Assembly: GCA_963821065.1 (NCBI GenBank)
Contig: CAWGCM010000011.1
Span: forward strand, 112,992 to 176,991
Length of the DNA: 64,000 bases
DNA from: an uncultured delta proteobacterium
GTDB taxonomy: Bacteria > Desulfobacterota > Desulfobacteria > Desulfobacterales > JAFDCJ01
Reading direction: 5' to 3'
Below are positions 45,803 through 59,453 of the stretch, in pieces (position 1 is the stretch's first letter; each line of letters starts with the position of its first letter). The notes beneath the pieces are model-generated. The model was not told the origin of the DNA. It searched no databases and saw only the letters and a list, made by a program, of their open reading frames with translations. Position numbers and translations under genes: made by a program.

Positions 45803-47926
45803 TCACTGGTCCACCTTAATTACTACCAAAGTGATATCGTCCTCCGGCGCCTCATCTCCTCGGAAACGCTCAAGTGCCTCAGTGACGGTGTCTACGATCT
45901 GTCGTGCGGACACCGATTGGTTGTTTCGGATAATTTCCATTAAAGCTTCTTTTCCGAACATCTCGCCGGCCTTATTGTGCATCTCCCAGATACCGTCGGT
46001 TCCAATCATTATAACCTGTCCAGGAACTATGCGACGGTGAAAAGAGTCGTATTCGAAAGCGTCGTCCAATCCGAGTGCCAGGCCCTGGCCTTTGAGTTCG
46101 TCAAACGTGTCCGTGGAGGGATCGTAGACCAGGGCCGGATCGTGCCCTGCGCGAACCCACTGAATCTCCGTTTCGCATTCCGTGAGCTCACAGTAGAAGA
46201 AGGTCATGAAATTGCCGGTCTGCGCGGTGTCCTGACTCAGATACCGGTTGACGTCGTTGATGATGCCGGCTGCTTCACCGGGCATAGAAGCACGCAGCAT
46301 GATCAGGGCCCGGGCTGTAGCCATGAGCAGAGCAGAAGATACGCCGTGACCCGAGACATCCCCGACGACCACGGCCAGTCCGGCCTGACCGCCCCGGCTG
46401 GTATTGATAAAATCGTAATAATCTCCGCCTGTTTCGTCACAATATATACTCGCGCCCGCAATATCGAATCCGGGGAGCGAAGGATCGCTCTGGGGCAAAA
46501 GACTCTGTTGCACCTCCTGAGCAAGTCCCAGAGCGATACTCATACGCATGTGTTCCTCGATCTTGGGGACGATATCGTTGAACGCATGGATCAGTTGGTC
46601 GCGCTCATCTTTCATACGGGGTTTGAGTCTTACCGAAAAGTCGCCCTTCGCAAGCCGCTTCCAGGCGTCGATGAGGGTCAGTATATGGCCGGTGCTGAAG
46701 CGGGAGGTGAAAAAGGCCACGATACCCACGAATAATAAGGCCAGCAGAACCGCGACACCGGTGATGGCCGTCTGCTCCTTGGAATATCCCACGAACATCT
46801 GCCCGACTTCTTCGGGCAACGTCATTACCACCGATTTGGGTACGATAATCACGAAATACTGGTCGGCATCATTCGCAGCATACGCAACGAGTGAATCCAC
46901 GCCTTTGTAAGTCATATCGAGGTATCCGGATTTCTTGTTTTTGATGAGATGAAACAGTGCTTCGATTTCCGGATGTTGGATTAATATCTCCTCCACCGAC
47001 TTCGAGCCGGCGGCGGCATTTTTATTCTGTGAGGAAAGGACCCATATTTTTTCTTTCTTTGAACTGGAATTCTTATCTACACCGACGACAAAAGAGGACA
47101 TCTTCTGAGACCATCGGGCGGCGGTTTCACTTTCCACGAGAGCATATTTAATCTTGAGGTCCATGGCGGCCACGCCGGCCAGTGAGCCGTCCGGGCGCCG
47201 GAAAGGCATGGAAACGGTTAAGGTAACCTGCCCGGTGGTGGCGTCCACGACCGGGAGCCAGCTAACCGTATTTGTCTTTAGTGCCATCTTATACCATGGG
47301 CGCTGCCTTGGGTCGTAGCCCGCCGGGTAGCCGCCGTGGCCCGGGTAAGAGATATGGATCCCGTTTTCCAGGCTGGCGTAGATCCAATAAAGTCCTTCTT
47401 GGTATTGATGGCTGATGCTTTTTAAGGTGGAGCTCAACCGAGTGAACCTGGCGATGTCCTTGGCTACGTCCTCCTTCATCGTACCGGGGGCCAAAAGGAA
47501 ATTGGGGTGTTCGCGGCTGATACGCTTATGGGATACAACGCGGCCTTCGGCGCGGATCGGATGATTCGTCGAGAACGCCATATCTTTGGGAGCTGACCGT
47601 GGATCGTCAAAATCGGCGGCATAGTAGAGTCTGGTATCTGGTGGCGGGGGCAGGGTTAGGGCAAGCTCGGCTCGGGCGGCCAGCCTCCGAAGGACCTGCT
47701 CAGATGCGAATCCCCCCAAATTAATGAGGTCGGAGTAGTTGCGGGTGGCGCGTACCATCTCCTGGCTGATCGTTTCAGTAAGGTTATTTTGAGCTCTTTC
47801 GGAAATGGTTTTTCCCAATCGCCGGGACGCGTTCTGGCTGATCCAGGTGACTGTCAACAGGGGAACTAGACTAGCTGCTACAAGAACCAGAAAGTATTTC
47901 CAGCGTAGTTTCATGGTACCTCCCAT
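45803..47926 (-). CDS. Membrane sensor: Cache-like periplasmic domain, HAMP, PP2C/SpoIIE serine phosphatase
   Basis: 707 aa with two TM segments, a HAMP region (ILTLIDAWKRLAKGDFSVRL), GGDYYDF and VVVGDVSGHGVSSALLMA PP2C motifs. Confidence 0.85.
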   Translation of the reverse strand: MGGTMKLRWKYFLVLVAASLVPLLTVTWISQNASRRLGKTISERAQNNLTETISQEMVRATRNYSDLINLGGFASEQVLRRLAARAELALTLPPPPDTRLYYAADFDDPRSAPKDMAFSTNHPIRAEGRVVSHKRISREHPNFLLAPGTMKEDVAKDIARFTRLSSTLKSISHQYQEGLYWIYASLENGIHISYPGHGGYPAGYDPRQRPWYKMALKTNTVSWLPVVDATTGQVTLTVSMPFRRPDGSLAGVAAMDLKIKYALVESETAARWSQKMSSFVVGVDKNSSSKKEKIWVLSSQNKNAAAGSKSVEEILIQHPEIEALFHLIKNKKSGYLDMTYKGVDSLVAYAANDADQYFVIIVPKSVVMTLPEEVGQMFVGYSKEQTAITGVAVLLALLFVGIVAFFTSRFSTGHILTLIDAWKRLAKGDFSVRLKPRMKDERDQLIHAFNDIVPKIEEHMRMSIALGLAQEVQQSLLPQSDPSLPGFDIAGASIYCDETGGDYYDFINTSRGGQAGLAVVVGDVSGHGVSSALLMATARALIMLRASMPGEAAGIINDVNRYLSQDTAQTGNFMTFFYCELTECETEIQWVRAGHDPALVYDPSTDTFDELKGQGLALGLDDAFEYDSFHRRIVPGQVIMIGTDGIWEMHNKAGEMFGKEALMEIIRNNQSVSARQIVDTVTEALERFRGDEAPEDDITLVVIKVDQ

Positions 47927-48804: not shown

Positions 48805-51800
48805 ATGAAATGCCCGAAGTGTCAGTTTGAGAATCGTGAAGGGGTGAAGTTCTGTGAAGAATGTGGCGCTAAGATTGAGTTAGTATGCCCTGCATGTAAA
48901 GCCAATATTCCTCTTGAGAGAAAATTCTGCGGTGAATGTGGCTATGATTTTAGCAAATCCTCAGAAACTGTCGCCCTCAAAGAAAAGCGAACAAGACTCC
49001 CAGATATTTGAATCGCCTCTCGAAGAGACCATACCAACACACATTTCAGCTGAAGGTGAACGAAAGCATGTGACTGTCCTTTTCTCTGATCTTACCGGAT
49101 ATACGGCCATGTCCGAAAAACTGGACCCGGAAGAGGTCAAAGAGATCACCAGCCGGATTTTTGGCGAAGTTTCCAAAATTGTGGCCAAATACGATGGATT
49201 CATCGAAAAGTATGCCGGTGATGCGGTGATGGCAATATTCGGAGTGCCCCAGGCCCATGAGGATGATCCAATCAGGGCTATCAAAGCTGCCCGTGAAATC
49301 CATCAGCTGGTGGATGCGATCAGCCCAGAGGTCGAAAAGAGGATAGGACAACCCATTTCGATGCACACAGGCATCAATACCGGTCTGGTGGTAACCGGTG
49401 AAGTGGACATGGAGAGAGGAACGCATGGCGTGGCCGGGGACACCATCAATCTCGCCTCACGCCTGAGCAATATGGCAAGCCCGGGGGAAATTCTGGTCGA
49501 TGTGGATACCTGCCATCAGGTTGAGGGACAATTTGCATGTGAATACATGGATACAACCTCCGTCAAGGGCAAAGCCGATCCTGTCCAGGTTCATAAAGTA
49601 TTATCTCAAAGGGATAAACCGGTTACCATCCGTCGGCTCTCCGGAATGAGAGCGGACCTGGTCGGCCGAGATGTGGAGATGGCCGAACTGTCCGAAGCGG
49701 TCGATAATATGCGGCAAGGCAAAGGTCGGATTTTTTCGATCTGCGGGGCTGCCGGTACAGGTAAAAGCAGATTGGTTGAGGAGTTCAAGGTCGGACTTGA
49801 TCTTGATCAGATTCAATGGATAGAAGGACATGCTTATGCATATTCTCAAGACATACCCTATTTTCCTCTGGTTGACCTTTTAAATCGATTGCTGCACATT
49901 GAGGAAAACGATTCCACTGAAAAAGTGAGGGAAAAAGTCGAGTCCGGGCTTGAATCTCTTATCGGAAAGCAGGAAGATATCATCCCTTATGTGGGTGGTC
50001 TTTACTCGTTGAGTTACCCTGAGATAAACGATGTCAGTCCCGAGTTCTGGAAATCTCGTCTGCAAGCGGCAATCCTGGAGATTCTTGAAGCTGTGGCCAA
50101 AAGAGCGCCGACCGTCTTCTTTCTGGAGGATTTGCACTGGGCCGATCCCTCCTTTGTGGATTTTTTGCGACGTGCATGTTTTGAGATCCGACAACCTGCC
50201 ATTGTGCTGTGTACGTACCGACCAACCTTCAGTCTTTTCACGGGCAATCAGGTAAGCAATATCGGCAAATATTATCATGATATTCAGCTGCAAAATCTGT
50301 CACTTTCAGTCGCCCAAAATATGCTTGCATCACTGCTTAAAACCGAAACCATCCCCCCCGATCTGAAGCGCTGGGTTCAGAGCAAAGCCGAGGGAAATCC
50401 TTTTTACCTGGAAGAGCTGGTCAACTCCTTGATCGAATCCGACACGCTGAGCCGGGATAACGGCAGCTGGAAACTCACCCGTTCCCTTGCCGAATCGGAT
50501 ATCCCCTCCTCGCTGCATGGACTAATTACCGGCAGGCTCGACCGGCTGGACAACCAGACCAAGCGCATTCTGCAAAAGGCGTCTGTGATCGGCCGGGATT
50601 TTCTTTACGAAATTTTAAAAAGAGTAACAGAGTTTGAAGAGCGCATCGATAGGGAACTCAGCCAGTTGGAGCGGCTCGACCTGATCAGAACCCGCTCTTT
50701 GCAACCGGATATAGAGTATATGTTCAAGCATGCCCTGACCCAGGAGATCGTCTACAACGGTCTGCTTAAAAAACAGCGCCGGGAAATCCATGAACAAATT
50801 GCACGGGTAATCGAAAGTGTCTTCAAGGACAGGCTGGCGGAATTCAACGAGACCTTGGCCTATCATTTTGCCAGAGGTCAATCGGTTACCAAGGCGGTCG
50901 ATTACTTGGTAAAATCGGGGGAAAAGAGTCTGGCAAGATATGCGGTGGAAGAAGCCAATCAGTACTTCAAAAAAGCTTATAAAATCCTGGCATCAAAAGA
51001 AGAGTTGTCTGAAGCAGAAAAAACTATCCTTATCAACATTTTAAACAGCTGGGGCTACGCCTTCTATTATCTCGGCGATTTTAGGGAATGCATCGATATT
51101 TTCACGTCTCATCAGGATATGGCAGAGTCCCTGCAAGACAAGGCAAAAGCTGGGATGTTCTATGTGTGGTTCGGTACTGCCCATTATATGGCAGGAATAC
51201 CAAAGGACGGCTATGAATACCTGTGCAAAGCCCTAAAACTCGGACAGAGTGCCGGTGATCAAAGAGTGGTGGGCTATGCCTGCACCTGGCTGCCATGGGC
51301 CTGTGCAGAACTGGGGCTTTTTGATGAAGGAATTGGTTATGGCGAGAGGGCCCAGGAGATAGCCATGTCGTATCCTTCCGATCAATATCTTTATTTTAAA
51401 TCCCTTGGTGGGCTATGCTTAATCTATTATTTCAAAGGAGATACGCGCAAGGTTTTCGAGGGCACGAAACGTCTATTAGACTACGGTGAAAGAAAATCCA
51501 ACAGCAGGAGCAAGGTGATTGGGCATTGGTTGGAAGCTTTTGGTCATCAGGCTACGGGAGATTTTAAGTCAGCGCAAAAGAGTGGTGAAAGAGCTATGGA
51601 AGTTGCGTTGGACCCTTTCTATGAGAGCTTTCCAAATTTTTCATTAGGCGTAGCTTATTTTTTCAACGGCCAACTTCAGAAAGCTGAAGATGCTCTTCAA
51701 TCCTGCATAAAATTTGGTGAGAAGCACGGTGAGGGGCAAATCTCTTTAATATGCCAGTGTTTTCTGGCTCCAATCTTGATTGCCAGAGGACAGATGCAGC

Positions 51801-52210
51801 ACGGGACCAAACTGCTGGAAGATGCGCAAAAGGCCCTGATTAGAAATCAGAGGAGATGGAGCTATGCCTTATCTGAGTTTATTCTTGGTGAAGTGAAATC
51901 ACAAATAGCCACAAGCCCAAAACCTTCTTTATCGATTATGGCCAAAAACATCGGTTTTTTGGCAAAAACTGTGCCGTTTGCGACCAAGAATGCCGAGCAG
52001 CACTTTAAAAAGGCGATTAAAATATATAAAGAATTGGGGGGGAAAGGCCAGCTTGGAATGGTTTATCTGAGCTTGGGTCTTCTACACAAATCGACTAAGA
52101 AAACCGACCAAGCTAGGCAATGCATCTTGGAGGCTATTGATCTATTTAAGGAATGTGAGGCTGATGGCTGGCTTAAACAAGCAAAGGAGGCACTTGTTTC
52201 TTTAGTATAA
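48805..52210 (+). pseudogene. Double zinc-ribbon, class III adenylate/guanylate cyclase, AAA/STAND ATPase, TPR protein with one +1 frame lesion near the N-terminus
   Basis: MKCPKCQFEN..CPACKANI..CGECGYDF (48805-) joins the 1098-aa frame (ERKHVTVLFSDLTGYT..AGDAVMAIFG; Walker A GAAGTGKSRL; TPR-like C-terminus). Length 3406-1 is divisible by 3. The lesion lies between 48914 and 49011. Confidence 0.8.
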
Positions 52211-54350: not shown

Positions 54351-54575
54351 ATGGGGAAACAAAATGTCACTATCTTTCGACTTTACCCGTTTAAAGTTGG
54401 GCAGAAAATTTATATTGAAGATGGGCCCCGCCATGGTGACTGGGAAGTTATGGATGTGACCGAACGGAAATTAAAGTTGCGTTGCCCCATTTCGAATCGC
54501 GAAGTTGAGTGGAACCGGTTTTGCTATTTTATGGAAGAGGCCGATAATAGTCCATGGCCCCATCGCGATGAATAG
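54351..54575 (+). CDS. Hypothetical small protein (74 aa)
   Basis: RBS AGGAGGG. Contains GDWEVMDVTERKLKLRCPISNREVEWNRFCYF. No family name recalled. Confidence 0.5.
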   Translation: MGKQNVTIFRLYPFKVGQKIYIEDGPRHGDWEVMDVTERKLKLRCPISNREVEWNRFCYFMEEADNSPWPHRDE

Positions 54576-54594
54576 TATTTTTAGGATGACTTTG

Positions 54595-55071
54595 ATGAAA
54601 AAAAAAGACTACAGAAAACGTATATACTGCTTTTATCGGAGAGGCAAAGGCTTATTTCAGACTGGTGGCATACGCTGAAAAGGCTGAAGAGGAAAAGGTT
54701 CCATAAATTGTGCCCTATTGTTTCGTGCAATAGCCGATGCGGAGAGGGTGCATGCTACTCGTCATTTAAGCTTGGTTGAAGATATATTAGTTAAAGATAC
54801 TGACACGAATTTAGAGAAATACTTTCAATGTGAAAAATCAATCAGTGAAATTGTATATCCTGACTTCATAAAAGATGCTGAACAAGATGGTGTGGAAACT
54901 GCAGCACTTGTATTCAGTCAGGCCAGAGATGCTGAAACCTTCCACGTAAAATTATATGAACAAATAAAGGAAGCTGAAGGACTGCTAAATAATAGACCCA
55001 TTCAATCGCAAGATCATGAAAATTGGAATAACACCACTCGGGAATATTTGATAAAGTGCCGCAGATGTTGA
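54595..55071 (+). pseudogene. Rubrerythrin/ferritin-like protein with two compensating frame lesions in A-runs
   Basis: ATG followed by A9 (54598-54606). Then TTENVYTAFIGEAKAYFRLVAYAEKAEEEK reads in frame +1, and the sequence returns to the start frame at GAAAAGG (GSINCALLFRAIADAERVHATRHL...). The total of 477 nt is divisible by 3. Confidence 0.65.
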
Positions 55072-55074
55072 AGC

Positions 55075-55305
55075 TTAGAGGAATTGCCCAAACTCTATGC
55101 CGAGTCCGATACATTGTTTGTCTTCCATGCACAGAGCCGCATCTTCATCTTCCAAATAGTGCTTAATCCGGTGTCCTTCCTTTTTAAAATTGACTTTCCA
55201 GACATTTCTTTCACTGTCCCACACAACTTTCAAATCCTTATCACATTCTCCTATTTCTGGGTAAATTTCATTTATCTTATTGCAAAGCGCTGTTTTTTCG
55301 TACAT
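55075..55305 (-). CDS. Hypothetical Cys-containing protein (76 aa)
   Basis: Clean ORF convergent with the rubrerythrin gene. No family recognised. Confidence 0.35.
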   Translation of the reverse strand: MYEKTALCNKINEIYPEIGECDKDLKVVWDSERNVWKVNFKKEGHRIKHYLEDEDAALCMEDKQCIGLGIEFGQFL

Positions 55306-55874
55306 GGTAAACCTCCTTTGAGGAAGGCTGTTTTTTTATCGAACCAGGATGTTTAAATTTATGACCCCAGTGGATAAATGTCGCATCCATAAGTTAAAAA
55401 TTTCCGGCCTTTTCTCCTGTTATAACAATATAGTGGCTTTTAATTAAAATTTAATCACGATTGTTATAAGGATTTGAAAGGATTATTCATTTTTGATATC
55501 TGATTCTGAATACCAACATGTAGCCAAAAATTGGTTTTCCCTCCTTTTCGGCCGGAAGAACCCATGCCATGCCGACTCTACCTGGAAATTTATAAACACC
55601 GCTGTTTCAGAAGTTGATGATATTCCTAAATATATCGATCATCACGTATTGAGTGATTCACTTTCATCGCTATTAGTTGTGGATTAATTTGACTGACAAT
55701 AAATGGTAATTATTTTAGTGGAGTCAGGTATGTTGACCTGAACCAACAGGTAGTTTTCCTTTAGTACCTCAAACGTGATTGATGAATCCTGTGCATGATC
55801 AACGAACTAAGAGTTGTCTGCATCACAATGCTACCCAGAAGGAAAAAGATGCGGAATAATGATGAGGTGAAAAC

Positions 55875-56024
55875 ATGGACAAAAAAGATAAAAAGAAAAA
55901 AAGCGATAAGTCTGCAGCAAAATTTTGCTGTTATCATGTCGTAGACAGTTGCGGTTGTGTTGTCGGAACATACTGCTGTGACGGCCCGGACATGTCGAAG
56001 TGCCGATTTGAAAGTTGCTGCTGA
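55875..56024 (+). CDS. Cys-rich 49-aa peptide (not in the ORF track)
   Basis: RBS GAGGTGA 5 nt upstream of the ATG. Sequence MDKKDKKKKSDKSAAKFCCYHVVDSCGCVVGTYCCDGPDMSKCRFESCC* has 9 Cys in the last 33 residues. Confidence 0.4.
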   Translation: MDKKDKKKKSDKSAAKFCCYHVVDSCGCVVGTYCCDGPDMSKCRFESCC

Positions 56025-56270
56025 CAAAAAATGCTTTTAGTGATAGATATAGCAAAAAACCAGATGTAATTCCCGGTCTTTTTGTTTAAACAGGAAGGAA
56101 AAATTTCAAAGAAAGACTTGGGCTCAATGCTAATTACAGAGAGCCGGTTTCAAAATCGTGTCACAAATTATTTGCCGAGTAGAGGACCATCTTTACCTAT
56201 TGATTGTCTAAACTGATCATCTAACAAACCTCGTAAAATTAAATGCCAAACTCAATATTTGGAAGGTAAT

Positions 56271-56579
56271 ATGGCTATCGAAGTCTTAATTAAAAGGAAG
56301 ATAAAGCAAGGCGGTAATGCAAAAATATTGGTTCCTTTAATCTTGCAGATTCGAGCACTTGCGCTGCGCCAACCCGGATATATTTCCGGTAAGACCTTAT
56401 GTGATTTAGAAAATCCCGGCGATTGTTTGGTAATCAGTATATGGGAAACTGTAAATGCCTGGAATAGATGGAAACAGAATAAAGCAAGAGCCCGTATTGA
56501 GAGTAAAATTGAAGCTTTAACTGGTGAGGAAACCCTCTACAAAACTTATGCGCCGATGACTGCAAGTCAGACTGATTGA
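56271..56579 (+). CDS. Antibiotic-biosynthesis-monooxygenase (ABM) domain protein
   Basis: MAIEVLIKRKIK..GYISGKTL..LVISIWETVNAWNRW is the pattern of a ferredoxin-like ABM fold. Confidence 0.7.
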   Translation: MAIEVLIKRKIKQGGNAKILVPLILQIRALALRQPGYISGKTLCDLENPGDCLVISIWETVNAWNRWKQNKARARIESKIEALTGEETLYKTYAPMTASQTD

Positions 56580-56686
56580 TAATTATTTTAGAGAAATGAA
56601 ATCCTTATTATAATCCTCATTCGTGCTGATAATTGAACGAGAGTGTCACACAGAAAATCAAAGATTCTGAAATAGAAAGATTCAAA

Positions 56687-57070
56687 ATGCCAAATAACAA
56701 ATCAACGCTATTTGAACGAATCGGCGGTAAGCAATTGATCGCTGAGGTTGTGGATGACTTTTATGATCGTATATTGGCCGACCCTGAACTGAAGCCGTTT
56801 TTTAGAAATACCTCTATTGATAAGCAGCGTAGCATGCAACGAGAGTTCTTTGGTGCGGCTCTTGATGGCCCTATCACTTATACGGGTAAACCCCTTAGTC
56901 ATGTCCACCATGGCAGAGGTATAACTAAACACCACCTTACTCTTTTCGTTAACCATCTCCTTGATACACTTCGAGATCGCGGAATTAACGACCAAGACGT
57001 TACTGATATAATCAACAGAATTAGTACTTACGCTAACGAAATCACTGGAGATATTAGTTCGGCCGGTTAA
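56687..57070 (+). CDS. Group 1 truncated hemoglobin (trHbN)
   Basis: STLFERIGGKQLIAEVVDDFYDRILADPELKPFF..QREFFGAALDGP..YTGKPL..HHGRGIT. Confidence 0.85.
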   Translation: MPNNKSTLFERIGGKQLIAEVVDDFYDRILADPELKPFFRNTSIDKQRSMQREFFGAALDGPITYTGKPLSHVHHGRGITKHHLTLFVNHLLDTLRDRGINDQDVTDIINRISTYANEITGDISSAG

Positions 57071-57327
57071 ATAGTAAATAATTGATGGTAAAAATATCAA
57101 GAGCGATTCATGTTGCTTCCTGCAATAAATCAGCCCTTTCAAAATTCCAGATTACTCCACAACAGATTTTCGAAGCTTGAAAATTTTTGTGATATCGTCA
57201 AAAAAATATATCAACAAGAAGAATTGGACTATTGATTTTGACCCGACCTTGCTGTCCCTTTGCTAACCAGTTTCTTATCGACGATAATCACGTTTTTTAA
57301 AAAGATCCTTTTTAACGGAGCACGAAT

Positions 57328-57759
57328 ATGAAAAAGGCTAATTGGCTCATAAGGACGTTGCTGATTTATTTTTTTTCTATAGGCTTTACAGCATTTTTAT
57401 CGGTACAGGCATATGGTCAAGTTATTAAAATCACAATCAATCAGCTATTGGAATCATTAGACCATCCCCAATTGCTACTCTTGGACGTACGGACTCCTGG
57501 AAGTTGGCAGGCCAGCGATAGCAAAATTAAGGGAGCGGTTAGAAAAAATCCCGATACTTTCGATTCTTGGGCTAATGGTTTACCCAAAAACAAGTACCTG
57601 GTGCTATACTGAGAGTGACCCAACGAAGAAACCAGTGCCAGGCTGGCACAAAAACTTCACAAAAAGGGTCACCCAAAAGTGCACGTAATATTAGGTGGAT
57701 GGCAAGAATGGCAAAAGGCAGGATTTCCAACCGAGAAAAAATCGCCTCTTCTTTTATGA
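57328..57759 (+). CDS. Secreted/periplasmic rhodanese-domain protein with two in-frame UGA codons (putative U-E-U selenoprotein)
   Basis: Signal peptide. The single frame reads ..LLLLDVRTPGSW..KNKYLVLY-TGA-GAG-TGA-PNEETSARLAQKLHKKGHPKVHVILGGWQEWQKAGFPTEKK.. and stays open to 57759 (144 codons including the stop). Confidence 0.7.
57635..57649 (+). promoter_or_regulatory. SECIS-like hairpin after the rhodanese UGAs
   Basis: GUGCC-AGGCU-GGCAC. The loop GG lies 23-24 nt after the second UGA and 29-30 nt after the first. Confidence 0.45.
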
Positions 57760-58317
57760 TCTCGATTTGCTCTTCAACATAAGTTAATCGAAAACCGATA
57801 ACAGCCACATGGACAAGTATGGTGAACCGAGGGTCTCCGGGAACTATGGATGGAGGCACGAAACCCATCAAAAATAAAGACTCAAAAAAGTGTCTATTTG
57901 TCATTGAGAAATCTGTAAAGAGCATACTATGGATTTTTCCAAGCAAGGTCGAAGTTGCCTAAAAGCTTTTCAAATAAGACATGGCACACTTTGGGGGTTG
58001 CCCAGAGTCTGGGAGTTTCCATACCCCCATTACAGATGGAGTCAAGAATCAAGATAGAGCTTAGCGTATATTTATGTAACAAATCATCGTGGCACCCCAA
58101 TCTGTGTAAGTATTTCATAGCTTAAACGACCAAATAGGTTATAAATGGTAATGGAAACAAATTGAGAAAAAGAGTCGGATGGGGGCGCTCACTACTTTGA
58201 CACGAACCCCAGAAATAGGAATCATCGGTAAGGCTGGATAATATACTCCAAGAGTATTAGGAGCTTAACATTTTGGTGAAAAAAAGGAAATTCAAGCCCA
58301 TAATAAAGAGGTAAGGT

Positions 58318-58884
58318 ATGAAAGTAACAAAACGGGTTGCACTTTATTTTTTCGGCCTATTTCTTATTTTTCTGGCAGGTGATTTCCCCCTGTGGGGGGG
58401 AGAGGACCACCTGGCAAAGTTTGGAGTAAATAGGTTAGACAAAAAGATTGATGCCCCGGAATTCACCCTTCCGGATTTAAAGGGCACAAAAAGAAGCCTG
58501 AGTGAATTTCGGGGAAAATTCATCATGTTGAATTTCTGGGCCACCTGGTGACCATACTGCCTCAAGGAGAGGTCCTCTCTGGAAAAGATCCATCAAGATT
58601 ACAGAAGCAAAAGTCTATTCATTTTGGCCGTCTCTATTGACCAAGGAAGCGGTGAAAAAGTTAGAAAGTTGCTTAAAGATTATGTCAAAAGCCATAACCT
58701 GACTTTCCTGAATTTACTAGATACTAAATCTGAATTTGCCGCCCAGTATGGTGTGAGTGGAATCCCGGTAAATTTTTTCATAAACACTCAGGGCAAAGTC
58801 GTCGCCTTTGCCAGCGGCTATCGGGATTGGAAAAGCGAAGAAGGCCGGAAGGTGATCGAACAGCTACTTTCTGAGACAAATTGA
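58318..58884 (+). CDS. TlpA/ResA-like thioredoxin-fold thiol:disulfide oxidoreductase with UxxC redox motif (selenoprotein)
   Basis: Signal/TM N-terminus. ..FIMLNFWATW-TGA-PYCLKERSSLEKIHQDY..LFILAVSID.. reads in one frame; 58549-58551 is TGA and the 58624 ORF is in frame. The canonical family motif is WCxxC. Confidence 0.75.
58566..58580 (+). promoter_or_regulatory. SECIS-like hairpin after the TlpA-like UGA
   Basis: GGAGA-GGUCC-UCUCU. The loop GGU lies 20-22 nt after the UGA. Confidence 0.45.
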
Positions 58885-59453
58885 TAATAATTTAACACCG
58901 TTTCTAGTTTTGGAATTTGTGCTGCGGCTTTCTGAAAGAGACCCCCACGGCCTGATCCCGACTCTTTCGTGACTAATATTTTTTCTAAATAAGTAGCTAA
59001 ATCATAATCTGAAAGCAGAAAATCGTCTTCAACCGCCGTGGTTTTCATTTAGAATCGACTAATCGGCCCTCCAGAATTTAACCAAACCTCAAAATCCAAC
59101 CATAAACGTCCGCGGAGATCCAAATCGAAAGGTTTTTCATGTTTCTTGCGAGAATGTGGCGCACAAATTTCAGATTGGATGAACAAATTCATAATAATAT
59201 CGAACAATTCACACGATATGATTCAGGCACGCTATACACACTTTCTGTGAGGCGAAAATTTTGTATATTTGTCATTGTGTAATCCACAATCTGAAAAGTC
59301 TTGTGATATCCCTTTCATATATGTAAAATCGCCAAATCTTTGATATTCTCAATCTGTAATCCGAATTTACTGATATAGAGTTGATTCCATATACGATAGA
59401 GGTTGAAATCGGCTATAGAATATCAATATCCACCCATCCAAACAGGAGGCAAC

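Follow-up and report, generated by a model that had tools for sequence, protein, structure and literature searches.

How can two UGA codons, one codon apart, both be read through in a gene where a single hairpin follows them? The question is raised by a small rhodanese gene at positions 57328-57759 of a 64-kb stretch of DNA from an uncultured delta proteobacterium of the Desulfobacterales (contig CAWGCM010000011.1; the whole stretch of 64,000 nucleotides analyzed is hereafter the window), in which a UGA-GAG-UGA triplet interrupts the rhodanese domain. We consider it likely that both UGAs are selenocysteine (Sec, U) codons recoded through the one Sec insertion sequence (SECIS) hairpin downstream, and that the product is a small, probably exported rhodanese of the LYCAU family. 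The broader proposal, that a short hairpin fixed in position directs Sec insertion at two UGAs 6 nt apart and has been exploited in this way at least five times independently in one family, we hold with somewhat more belief than doubt.

A rhodanese gene interrupted by two UGA codons

The open reading frame (ORF) opens with ATG at 57328, and its 94 codons end at TGA 57610-57612, which is followed by GAG and a second TGA (57616-57618). Past this second TGA the frame continues for 46 sense codons to the true stop, TGA 57757-57759; with TGA left as written, the translation reads ..YLVLY-TGA-E-TGA-PNEETSARLAQKL..GGWQEWQKAGFPTEKKSPLLL-TGA. The features of the gene are as follows.

57317-57320, + strand: GGAG, a putative Shine-Dalgarno-like sequence read off the sequence, 7 nt before ATG 57328
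57328-57759, + strand: complete coding sequence of a 143-residue rhodanese-related selenoprotein with two predicted Sec residues (PF00581, NF041203 and substitution rates)
57328-57408, + strand: probable Sec-type (secretory) signal peptide, MKKANWLIRTLLIYFFSIGFTAFLSVQA then YGQ, judged from the N-terminus, cleavage site approximate
57610-57612, + strand: UGA1, residue 95, two residues ahead of the catalytic position, in a column that is Cys in most of the family
57613-57615, + strand: GAG (Glu) separating UGA1 and UGA2
57616-57618, + strand: UGA2, residue 97, the standard Sec of the family (U of 'LYCAU'), aligned with the catalytic Cys of solved rhodaneses
57635-57649, + strand: SECIS-like upper stem-loop GUGCC-AGGCU-GGCAC (RNAalifold, base pairing and covariation)

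With U scored as C, the Rhodanese profile PF00581 matched on either side of the TGAs, over residues 37-131 (E=6.8e-14, 52.6 bits against a gathering threshold of 22.2). A first-pass annotation made from the sequence alone had described the ORF, both TGA positions and the 46-codon open frame, with all coordinates and counts right, and had held that the two halves complete a canonical rhodanese domain, which the PF00581 match across the TGAs bears out. The protein also scored 143.2 bits against the rhodanese_LYCAU (seleno)protein family NF041203 (curated cut-off 115; profile positions 10-126 of 126). The motif of that family is LYCAU with a single Sec at the last position, and the window protein has LY-U-E-U. 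It is a variant inside the family, with Sec at the last position as in other members and TGA also at the position of the family Cys. It is a member neither of the ChrE rhodaneses (NF033833; 48.5 bits against a cut-off of 120) nor of TsoB (NF045694; 23.5 bits against 805), being a single domain of 143 residues.

The N-terminus is basic and is followed by a hydrophobic core and a V-Q-A motif. Similar N-termini resembling Sec-type signal peptides occur across the family, which points to a protein that is probably exported and extracytoplasmic. Of the window's 33 longest open frames, 12 have TGA as their stop, and the genetic code is therefore standard.

Homologs have Cys or TGA at both positions

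A search of 5.8 billion proteins returned >100 clusters with 60-95% identity to the window protein, and nearly all of them are 93-95 residues long and end in ..L[VA]LY, that is, exactly at UGA1. The 94-residue fragment also recurs in exact copies on several short contigs from metagenomes (JGI, ENA and Logan samples). The closest named relatives come from uncultured Desulfobacterales and Desulfosarcina metagenome-assembled genomes (MAGs), and the family is also present in the Olavius Delta 1 symbiont. Public copies from the window clade are stored as 'hypothetical proteins' of ~94 residues (P0001-P0110), and the few full-length entries (P0001, P0112-P0114) show W at the Sec positions, a product of translation with UGA=Trp. 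In P0001, the sequence so translated (LVLY-W-D-W-PQEQTSARLAQKL) reveals the same TGA-x-TGA on another contig.

At the codon level we read 122 loci, 80 from species-representative genomes and 42 from metagenomes. The 80 genome loci and the window comprise 66 C-x-U forms (x = A/S/K/T/D), 10 U-x-U forms, two C-S-C forms (MAG loci L036 and L044) and three with a shortened loop that has one Cys or one Sec. From the metagenome scan come a further 19 U-[D/E]-U loci that are 61-99% identical to the window, and 13 soil C-x-C homologs with YC[A/S]CPS[D/E]E (L100-L112). The U-x-C form was not found among the 122 loci.

The first position is TGC or TGT in the 66 C-x-U loci and TGA in the 30 U-x-U sequences (the window and 29 other loci read at the DNA level), and the second is TGA in all 85 distinct Sec-form segments. 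The codon between the UGAs encodes Asp or Glu throughout the window clade and Ala, Ser or Thr in other lineages. All 19 close metagenomic loci, and three MAG loci, have U-[DE]-U with a conserved open frame beyond it; every Sec form remains open, with a conserved frame, as far as the common C-terminus. The two TGA columns both hold Cys in P0111 (LYCACANEGTS) and in L036 and L044 (YCSCPN[DE]ETSG). The first-pass annotation had placed the UGAs on the Cys-x-Cys of a YCxCPxEExSA loop, and these three sequences together with L100-L112 agree with that placement. Each in-frame UGA thus aligns with Cys, and homology continues beyond it. Over 228 pairs from the window clade, the ratio of nonsynonymous to synonymous substitution rates (dN/dS) was 0.26 for the part ahead of the TGAs and 0.23 for the part beyond them, and the latter part is therefore translated.

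The shortened-loop sub-form has an active-site loop two residues shorter, with a single Cys (LY-C-QKEGT in L054 and L063) or a single Sec (LY-U-QKEGT in L070; L070:6001-6402), and a weaker hairpin (CGUC-CGGGU-GGCG) at the same UGA spacing. L070 was considered as a case of Sec at the first position only; this was ruled out by its standard UGA-to-hairpin spacing, which identifies its Sec as the second position after a two-codon deletion.

A conserved hairpin lies at a fixed distance from the UGAs

The hairpin is formed by the arms GUGCC (57635-57639) and GGCAC (57645-57649) around the loop AGGCU, with the loop GG at 57641-57642, 23-24 nt past the A of UGA2. In the window clade, an A-U pair can close the loop to give a 6-bp stem with a GGC triloop. 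In a gapless RNA alignment of the 85 distinct Sec-form segments (75 nt each), RNAalifold returned one helix only, columns 32-36 with 42-46, and the hairpin is 99.1% paired over these segments. Its pairs covary: pair 33-45 is UA in 57, CG in 23 and UG in 3 segments, pair 32-46 is GC in 77 and CG in 3, and pair 36-42 is CG in 82 and AU in 2. The covariation score was 0.219, compared with 0.150 ± 0.007 in shuffled alignments (0/500 reach 0.219) and 0.112 or less in slid controls. Pair 33-45 links two wobble positions, Ser AGU/AGC with Ala GCA/GCG, and the mutual information between these columns is 0.70 bit, versus at most 0.09 when column 33 is paired with other third-codon positions. A bias in GC content at third codon positions (GC3) as the source of the AGU..GCA and AGC..GCG covariation was ruled out, the association being complete within each GC3 tertile.

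Loop position 2 (column 38) is G in 85/85 segments, and the stem starts 16 nt past UGA2 in every C-x-U and U-x-U gene, with no shift. In L036 and L044, the two MAG loci of the Cys-only form that were read as DNA, GGC replaces GCC and the stem is broken. The hairpin and the spacing of its loop GG, both proposed from the sequence of the window, are thus present, fixed in position and covarying. A consensus scan also flagged a minus-strand terminator at this site. We ruled it out, given the conserved coding frame, the lack of a plausible minus-strand gene, and G·U pairs that occur in the alignment on the + strand only. Over the whole window no Rfam family reached its gathering threshold, and around the gene a search at E up to 10 gave two chance-level matches only; Rfam is without a model for this element.

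The published bacterial SECIS model has a loop of 3-9 nt, an upper stem of 4-16 bp, the loop pattern N1-G-[G/U]-N-N2, a UGA-to-loop distance of 16-37 nt and a minimum free energy no higher than -7.5 kcal/mol (PMC13188914). The window hairpin has a 5-nt loop on a 5-bp stem, or a 3-nt loop on a 6-bp stem, and the loop AGGCU has its G in place. For UGA2, at the standard spacing of the family, the stem starts after 16 nt and the loop after 21 nt; UGA1 lies 6 nt further upstream (22 and 27 nt), and one hairpin therefore stands within the 16-37 nt range of both UGAs. As an energy, the bare 15-mer gives -7.2 kcal/mol and -8.7 with one flanking nt per side, so the minimal hairpin is borderline; the value is -9.4 with the lower helix listed below and -13.2 for 60 nt. 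The first-pass description of the hairpin as SECIS-like is in line with the loop, stem, G and spacing terms of the model.

57625-57658, + strand: possible clade-specific lower helix, GAAG (57625-57628) with CUUC (57655-57658), around the upper hairpin, status uncertain

Lower helices, GAAG/CUUC and ACCC/GGGU, were evaluated as a family-wide part of the SECIS and rejected (60.6% paired, no covariation).

The second position aligns with the catalytic Cys

A profile built from 29 members of the family matched PDB 6mxv with E=1.5e-25 and aligned without gaps to both of its domains. The alignment sets YC-GGGFR-SA against C/U-PNEAT-SA, and the UGA2 position falls on the catalytic Cys; in weaker alignments, those to 6kvw, the first position takes that place instead, and some ambiguity stays. 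The catalytic position heads a C-X5-S loop and is Sec in nearly the whole family. Given the 6mxv alignment, the second residue is the predicted nucleophile, the ancestral and catalytic Sec of the family, and the first is a putative add-on.

Cys at the first position is kept even in the all-Cys soil homologs. This residue is probably a redox or resolving partner, linked in a disulfide or selenenylsulfide, and the U-x-U pair could make a diselenide where relatives make a selenenylsulfide or disulfide. The active-site loop is acidic (U-PNEET-S) rather than basic, and thiosulfate-type anionic substrates would therefore be less likely.

The U-x-U form appears to have arisen repeatedly

The nearest relatives of the U-x-U genes L052, L056, L076, L049/L073 and L059 are all C-x-U, and the Desulfobacterales U-[D/E]-U clade itself includes one C-A-U member (P0045, 75% identical). 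From the C-x-U relatives of these scattered genes, the U-x-U form appears to have arisen independently at least five or six times, each time from a C-x-U gene in which the SECIS and the catalytic Sec were already present. The repeated gain of U-x-U, together with the absence of U-x-C, supports a model in which a UGA two codons upstream would be viable once a SECIS is in place.

In this model, SelB·GTP·Sec-tRNASec acting on one SECIS hairpin (57635-57649) would recode both UGAs. UGA1 would piggy-back on the pre-existing element, with the hairpin left unshifted as U-x-U arose from C-x-U, and in the Desulfobacterales clade of the window the partner Cys would also have become Sec, giving U-E-U. 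A single SECIS serving both UGAs fits the data, because no second conserved structure was found.

Evidence against a single hairpin and alternative explanations

Several observations weigh against the proposal that one hairpin recodes both UGAs. Folded alone, the window hairpin is unexceptional (z=-1.26; 22/200 shuffles fold as well), and it stands out from chance because of the comparison with relatives, namely the conserved cut point, the U-x-U loci and the covariation, and not because of single-sequence folding. None of selA, selB, selC and selD lies in the 64-kb window, and a tRNA scan of the window found no tRNA gene. In E. coli fdhF, a shift of the UGA by one or two codons relative to the SECIS is reported to leave markedly less read-through (Heider et al. 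1992; Chen et al. 1993), so the fixed hairpin may serve UGA1 poorly. The GAAG/CUUC helix is paired in 13-14 of the 14 Desulfobacterales U-[DE]-U sequences, among which it does not vary, and neither the other U-x-U lineages nor most C-x-U forms have it. In Nitrospirota U-A-U genes, UGA1 itself is paired in a long lower stem, of 8 bp in L059:6202-6276 (UGAGCCUG/CAGGCUUA) and UGAGC/GCUCA in L049:6253-6327 and L073:6253-6327. These Nitrospirota stems resemble the fdhF SECIS, in which the stem starts at the UGA; they may be due to chance, with two independent lineages only. Given the Desulfobacterales helix and the Nitrospirota stems, the effective element for UGA1 could differ between lineages.

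The alternative that survives best, though we regard it as unlikely, is that only UGA2 is efficiently recoded, with UGA1 mostly terminating translation as an attenuator. The main product would then be the 94-residue fragment, and full-length protein would be low and selenium-dependent. UGA1 does lie 6 nt beyond the standard hairpin spacing of the family, and the E. coli spacing experiments suggest lower efficiency at such a distance. A regulatory stop, however, need not fall exactly on a functional Cys column, and UGA1 is kept under selection in >100 clusters and occurs independently in at least five lineages, always on the conserved Cys column. The 94-residue product would also stop short of the active-site loop and lack the fold's C-terminal half, and the equal dN/dS on both sides of the TGAs is hard to reconcile with it.

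Rather improbable in our judgment is that each UGA has its own SECIS, UGA1 using a second overlapping or extended structure such as GAAG/CUUC, which starts 12 nt after UGA1, or the Nitrospirota stems. The near-universal lower helix of the Desulfobacterales U-x-U genes, rare in C-x-U, would suit this explanation, as would the 8-bp stem of L059 and the 5-bp stem of L049 that include UGA1. Nevertheless, the lower helices vary among U-x-U lineages, lie over conserved codons and do not covary, and L052, L056 and L076 have no such extension. RNAalifold gives the shared hairpin only, and SelB binds the apical part of the SECIS.

It is very improbable that UGA1 is not decoded as Sec but read through by suppression, for example with near-cognate insertion of Trp or Cys, to give a protein with one Sec. 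Database entries do show W at these positions (P0001), but this derives from gene calling with UGA=Trp, and the first column is Cys or TGA and never TGG. UGA1 was seen only in genes that also have the SECIS and UGA2, with no U-x-C and no U-x-U without the hairpin, as dependence on the SECIS predicts. A pseudogene, a sequencing error or a genome-wide reassignment of UGA, for which the presence of the stop codons speaks and nothing further, is effectively refuted by the identical arrangement on many independent contigs from different samples, by purifying selection and by the use of TGA as a normal stop in the window.

A second selenoprotein gene and the surroundings of the locus

Indirect but independent evidence that the organism decodes Sec comes from the next gene downstream, apparently a second selenoprotein gene of a known kind.

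58318-58887, + strand: AhpC/TSA-redoxin (TlpA/ResA-like) selenoprotein gene with an in-frame UGA at 58549-58551 (WATW-U-PYC)

PF00578 matched residues 45-163 of its product across the TGA (E=6.6e-25). The in-frame TGA is the first Cys of the CxxC motif, which makes this a predicted UxxC redoxin; gene calling split it into two ORFs (77 and 86 residues), and the N-terminus is hydrophobic. Two alternative hairpins follow the TGA, GCCUC-AAGGA-GAGGU and GGAGAG-GUC-CUCUCU, and the use of this SECIS as an in-genome spacing standard was set aside because the two compete.

The adjacency of rhodanese and redoxin is kept only in near-identical strains. Across the gene neighborhoods of 81 loci, no neighbor was common to >13 loci, and therefore no function was deduced from operon structure. 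Positions 54700-58900 of the window hold a local cluster of genes related to oxygen and redox stress, an arrangement that recurs only in near-identical strains: a rubrerythrin fragment, an ABM monooxygenase-like ORF (56259-56579), a truncated bacterial globin (56633-57070), the di-Sec rhodanese and the Sec redoxin. The globin likewise recurs beside the rhodanese only in near-identical strains. The rubrerythrin-like ORF (54508-55071, + strand) matches profile positions 34-136 of 137 only, with two in-frame stops just upstream (GGIR-stop-KG-stop-RGKG), and may be disrupted or frameshifted, or have a miscalled start.

Two smaller ORFs lie in the same region. One, at 55075-55305 on the - strand, encodes 76 residues including Cys, has no Pfam match, and has ~30% identical counterparts a few kb from the rhodanese gene in L070 and L064. 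The other, at 55875-56024 on the + strand, encodes 49 residues with a lysine-rich start followed by a very Cys-rich part (..FCCYHVVDSCGCVVGTYCCDGPDMSKCRFESCC), and may be a small metal-binding peptide, a peptide resembling the ribosomally synthesized and post-translationally modified ones, or spurious. Further upstream, a gene at 48914-52210 (+ strand) encodes a 1098-residue protein with an adenylate/guanylate cyclase domain, an AAA_16 ATPase domain and TPR repeats, and is preceded by a Cache/HAMP/SpoIIE phosphatase on the opposite strand (45803-47926).

Implications

We know of no experiments in bacteria that address how far a UGA can lie from its SECIS, or whether a hairpin can act a second time shortly after the first, and the locus offers a compact natural test case for both. 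If the single-hairpin proposal is true, the geometry of SelB, SECIS and ribosome would tolerate a 6-nt (two-codon) window in these bacteria, and a second SelB ternary complex would be able to load onto that hairpin anew within two elongation cycles. This would yield an exported rhodanese with a U-x-U diselenide active site, and such a pair at a rhodanese active site would be an unusual redox center. For annotation, every database copy in this clade is stored truncated or with W, a systematic misannotation of the family, and counts of the marine Desulfobacterales selenoproteome therefore miss this rhodanese.

Comparison with known systems

The window protein has its fold in common with PDB 6mxv, GlpE and the PspE-type single-domain rhodaneses. 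Those proteins have one Cys in a G/R-rich loop (CGGGFRS), whereas the loop of the window protein is acidic, with an extra C/U two residues upstream.

The model bacterial SECIS is that of E. coli fdhF, whose minimal hairpin begins 11 nt past the UGA, with the loop G at nt 23 and a bulge at U17 (PMC8659212). This element and the window hairpin are both stem-loops in the coding region just past the UGA, with a small apical loop in which G is followed by G or U. They differ in distance, the loop G of the window hairpin being nt 26 from UGA2 and nt 32 from UGA1, and in the stem, which in the window is only 5-6 bp and is without a conserved bulge.

Selenocysteine-containing rhodanese-like sulfurtransferases are known, as the first-pass annotation stated, and the window protein passes the NF041203 cut-off of such a family. 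The C-x-U form appears as 'form 3, CxU' with NF041203 in a 2026 review (PMC13188914). Domain, exported architecture, Sec position and hairpin are common to that family and the window protein; the family has LY-C-A-U with one Sec, and the window protein LY-U-E-U with two and an acidic middle residue. Among bacterial double selenoproteins, which include MbdU and others, the rhodanese/DsbD fusion TsoB (NF045694, UxxxxU) is listed in the same review (PMC13188914). It resembles the window protein in its two closely spaced Sec residues and rhodanese domain, and differs in motif and architecture.

The first-pass annotation had called a tandem U-x-U served by a single SECIS unusual. The two adjacent in-frame UGAs are real, but the form is not new: 'a second Sec ... 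resulting in a UxU motif' was reported for this rhodanese family by Zhang & Gladyshev 2007 (PMC1976440), and both this kind of gene and its U-x-U variant are already in the literature. A search of full-text literature for 'UxU motif' and 'LYCAU' returned no bacterial report besides that one. The U-x-U rhodanese described there belongs to deltaproteobacterial symbionts of Olavius algarvensis, which fall in the same broad taxon as the window, Desulfobacterota; the Olavius Delta 1 symbiont also has a C-A-U paralog (L020). That report gives the form one sentence and an alignment figure, with nothing on the decoding of two UGAs 6 nt apart, the location of the SECIS or the number of origins (PMC1976440). 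To it the present analysis adds a hairpin that is fixed in position and covarying, two UGAs that both lie within its SECIS spacing range, a U-x-U form that appears to have arisen repeatedly while U-x-C was never found among the loci read, and the probable assignment of the catalytic role to the second position.

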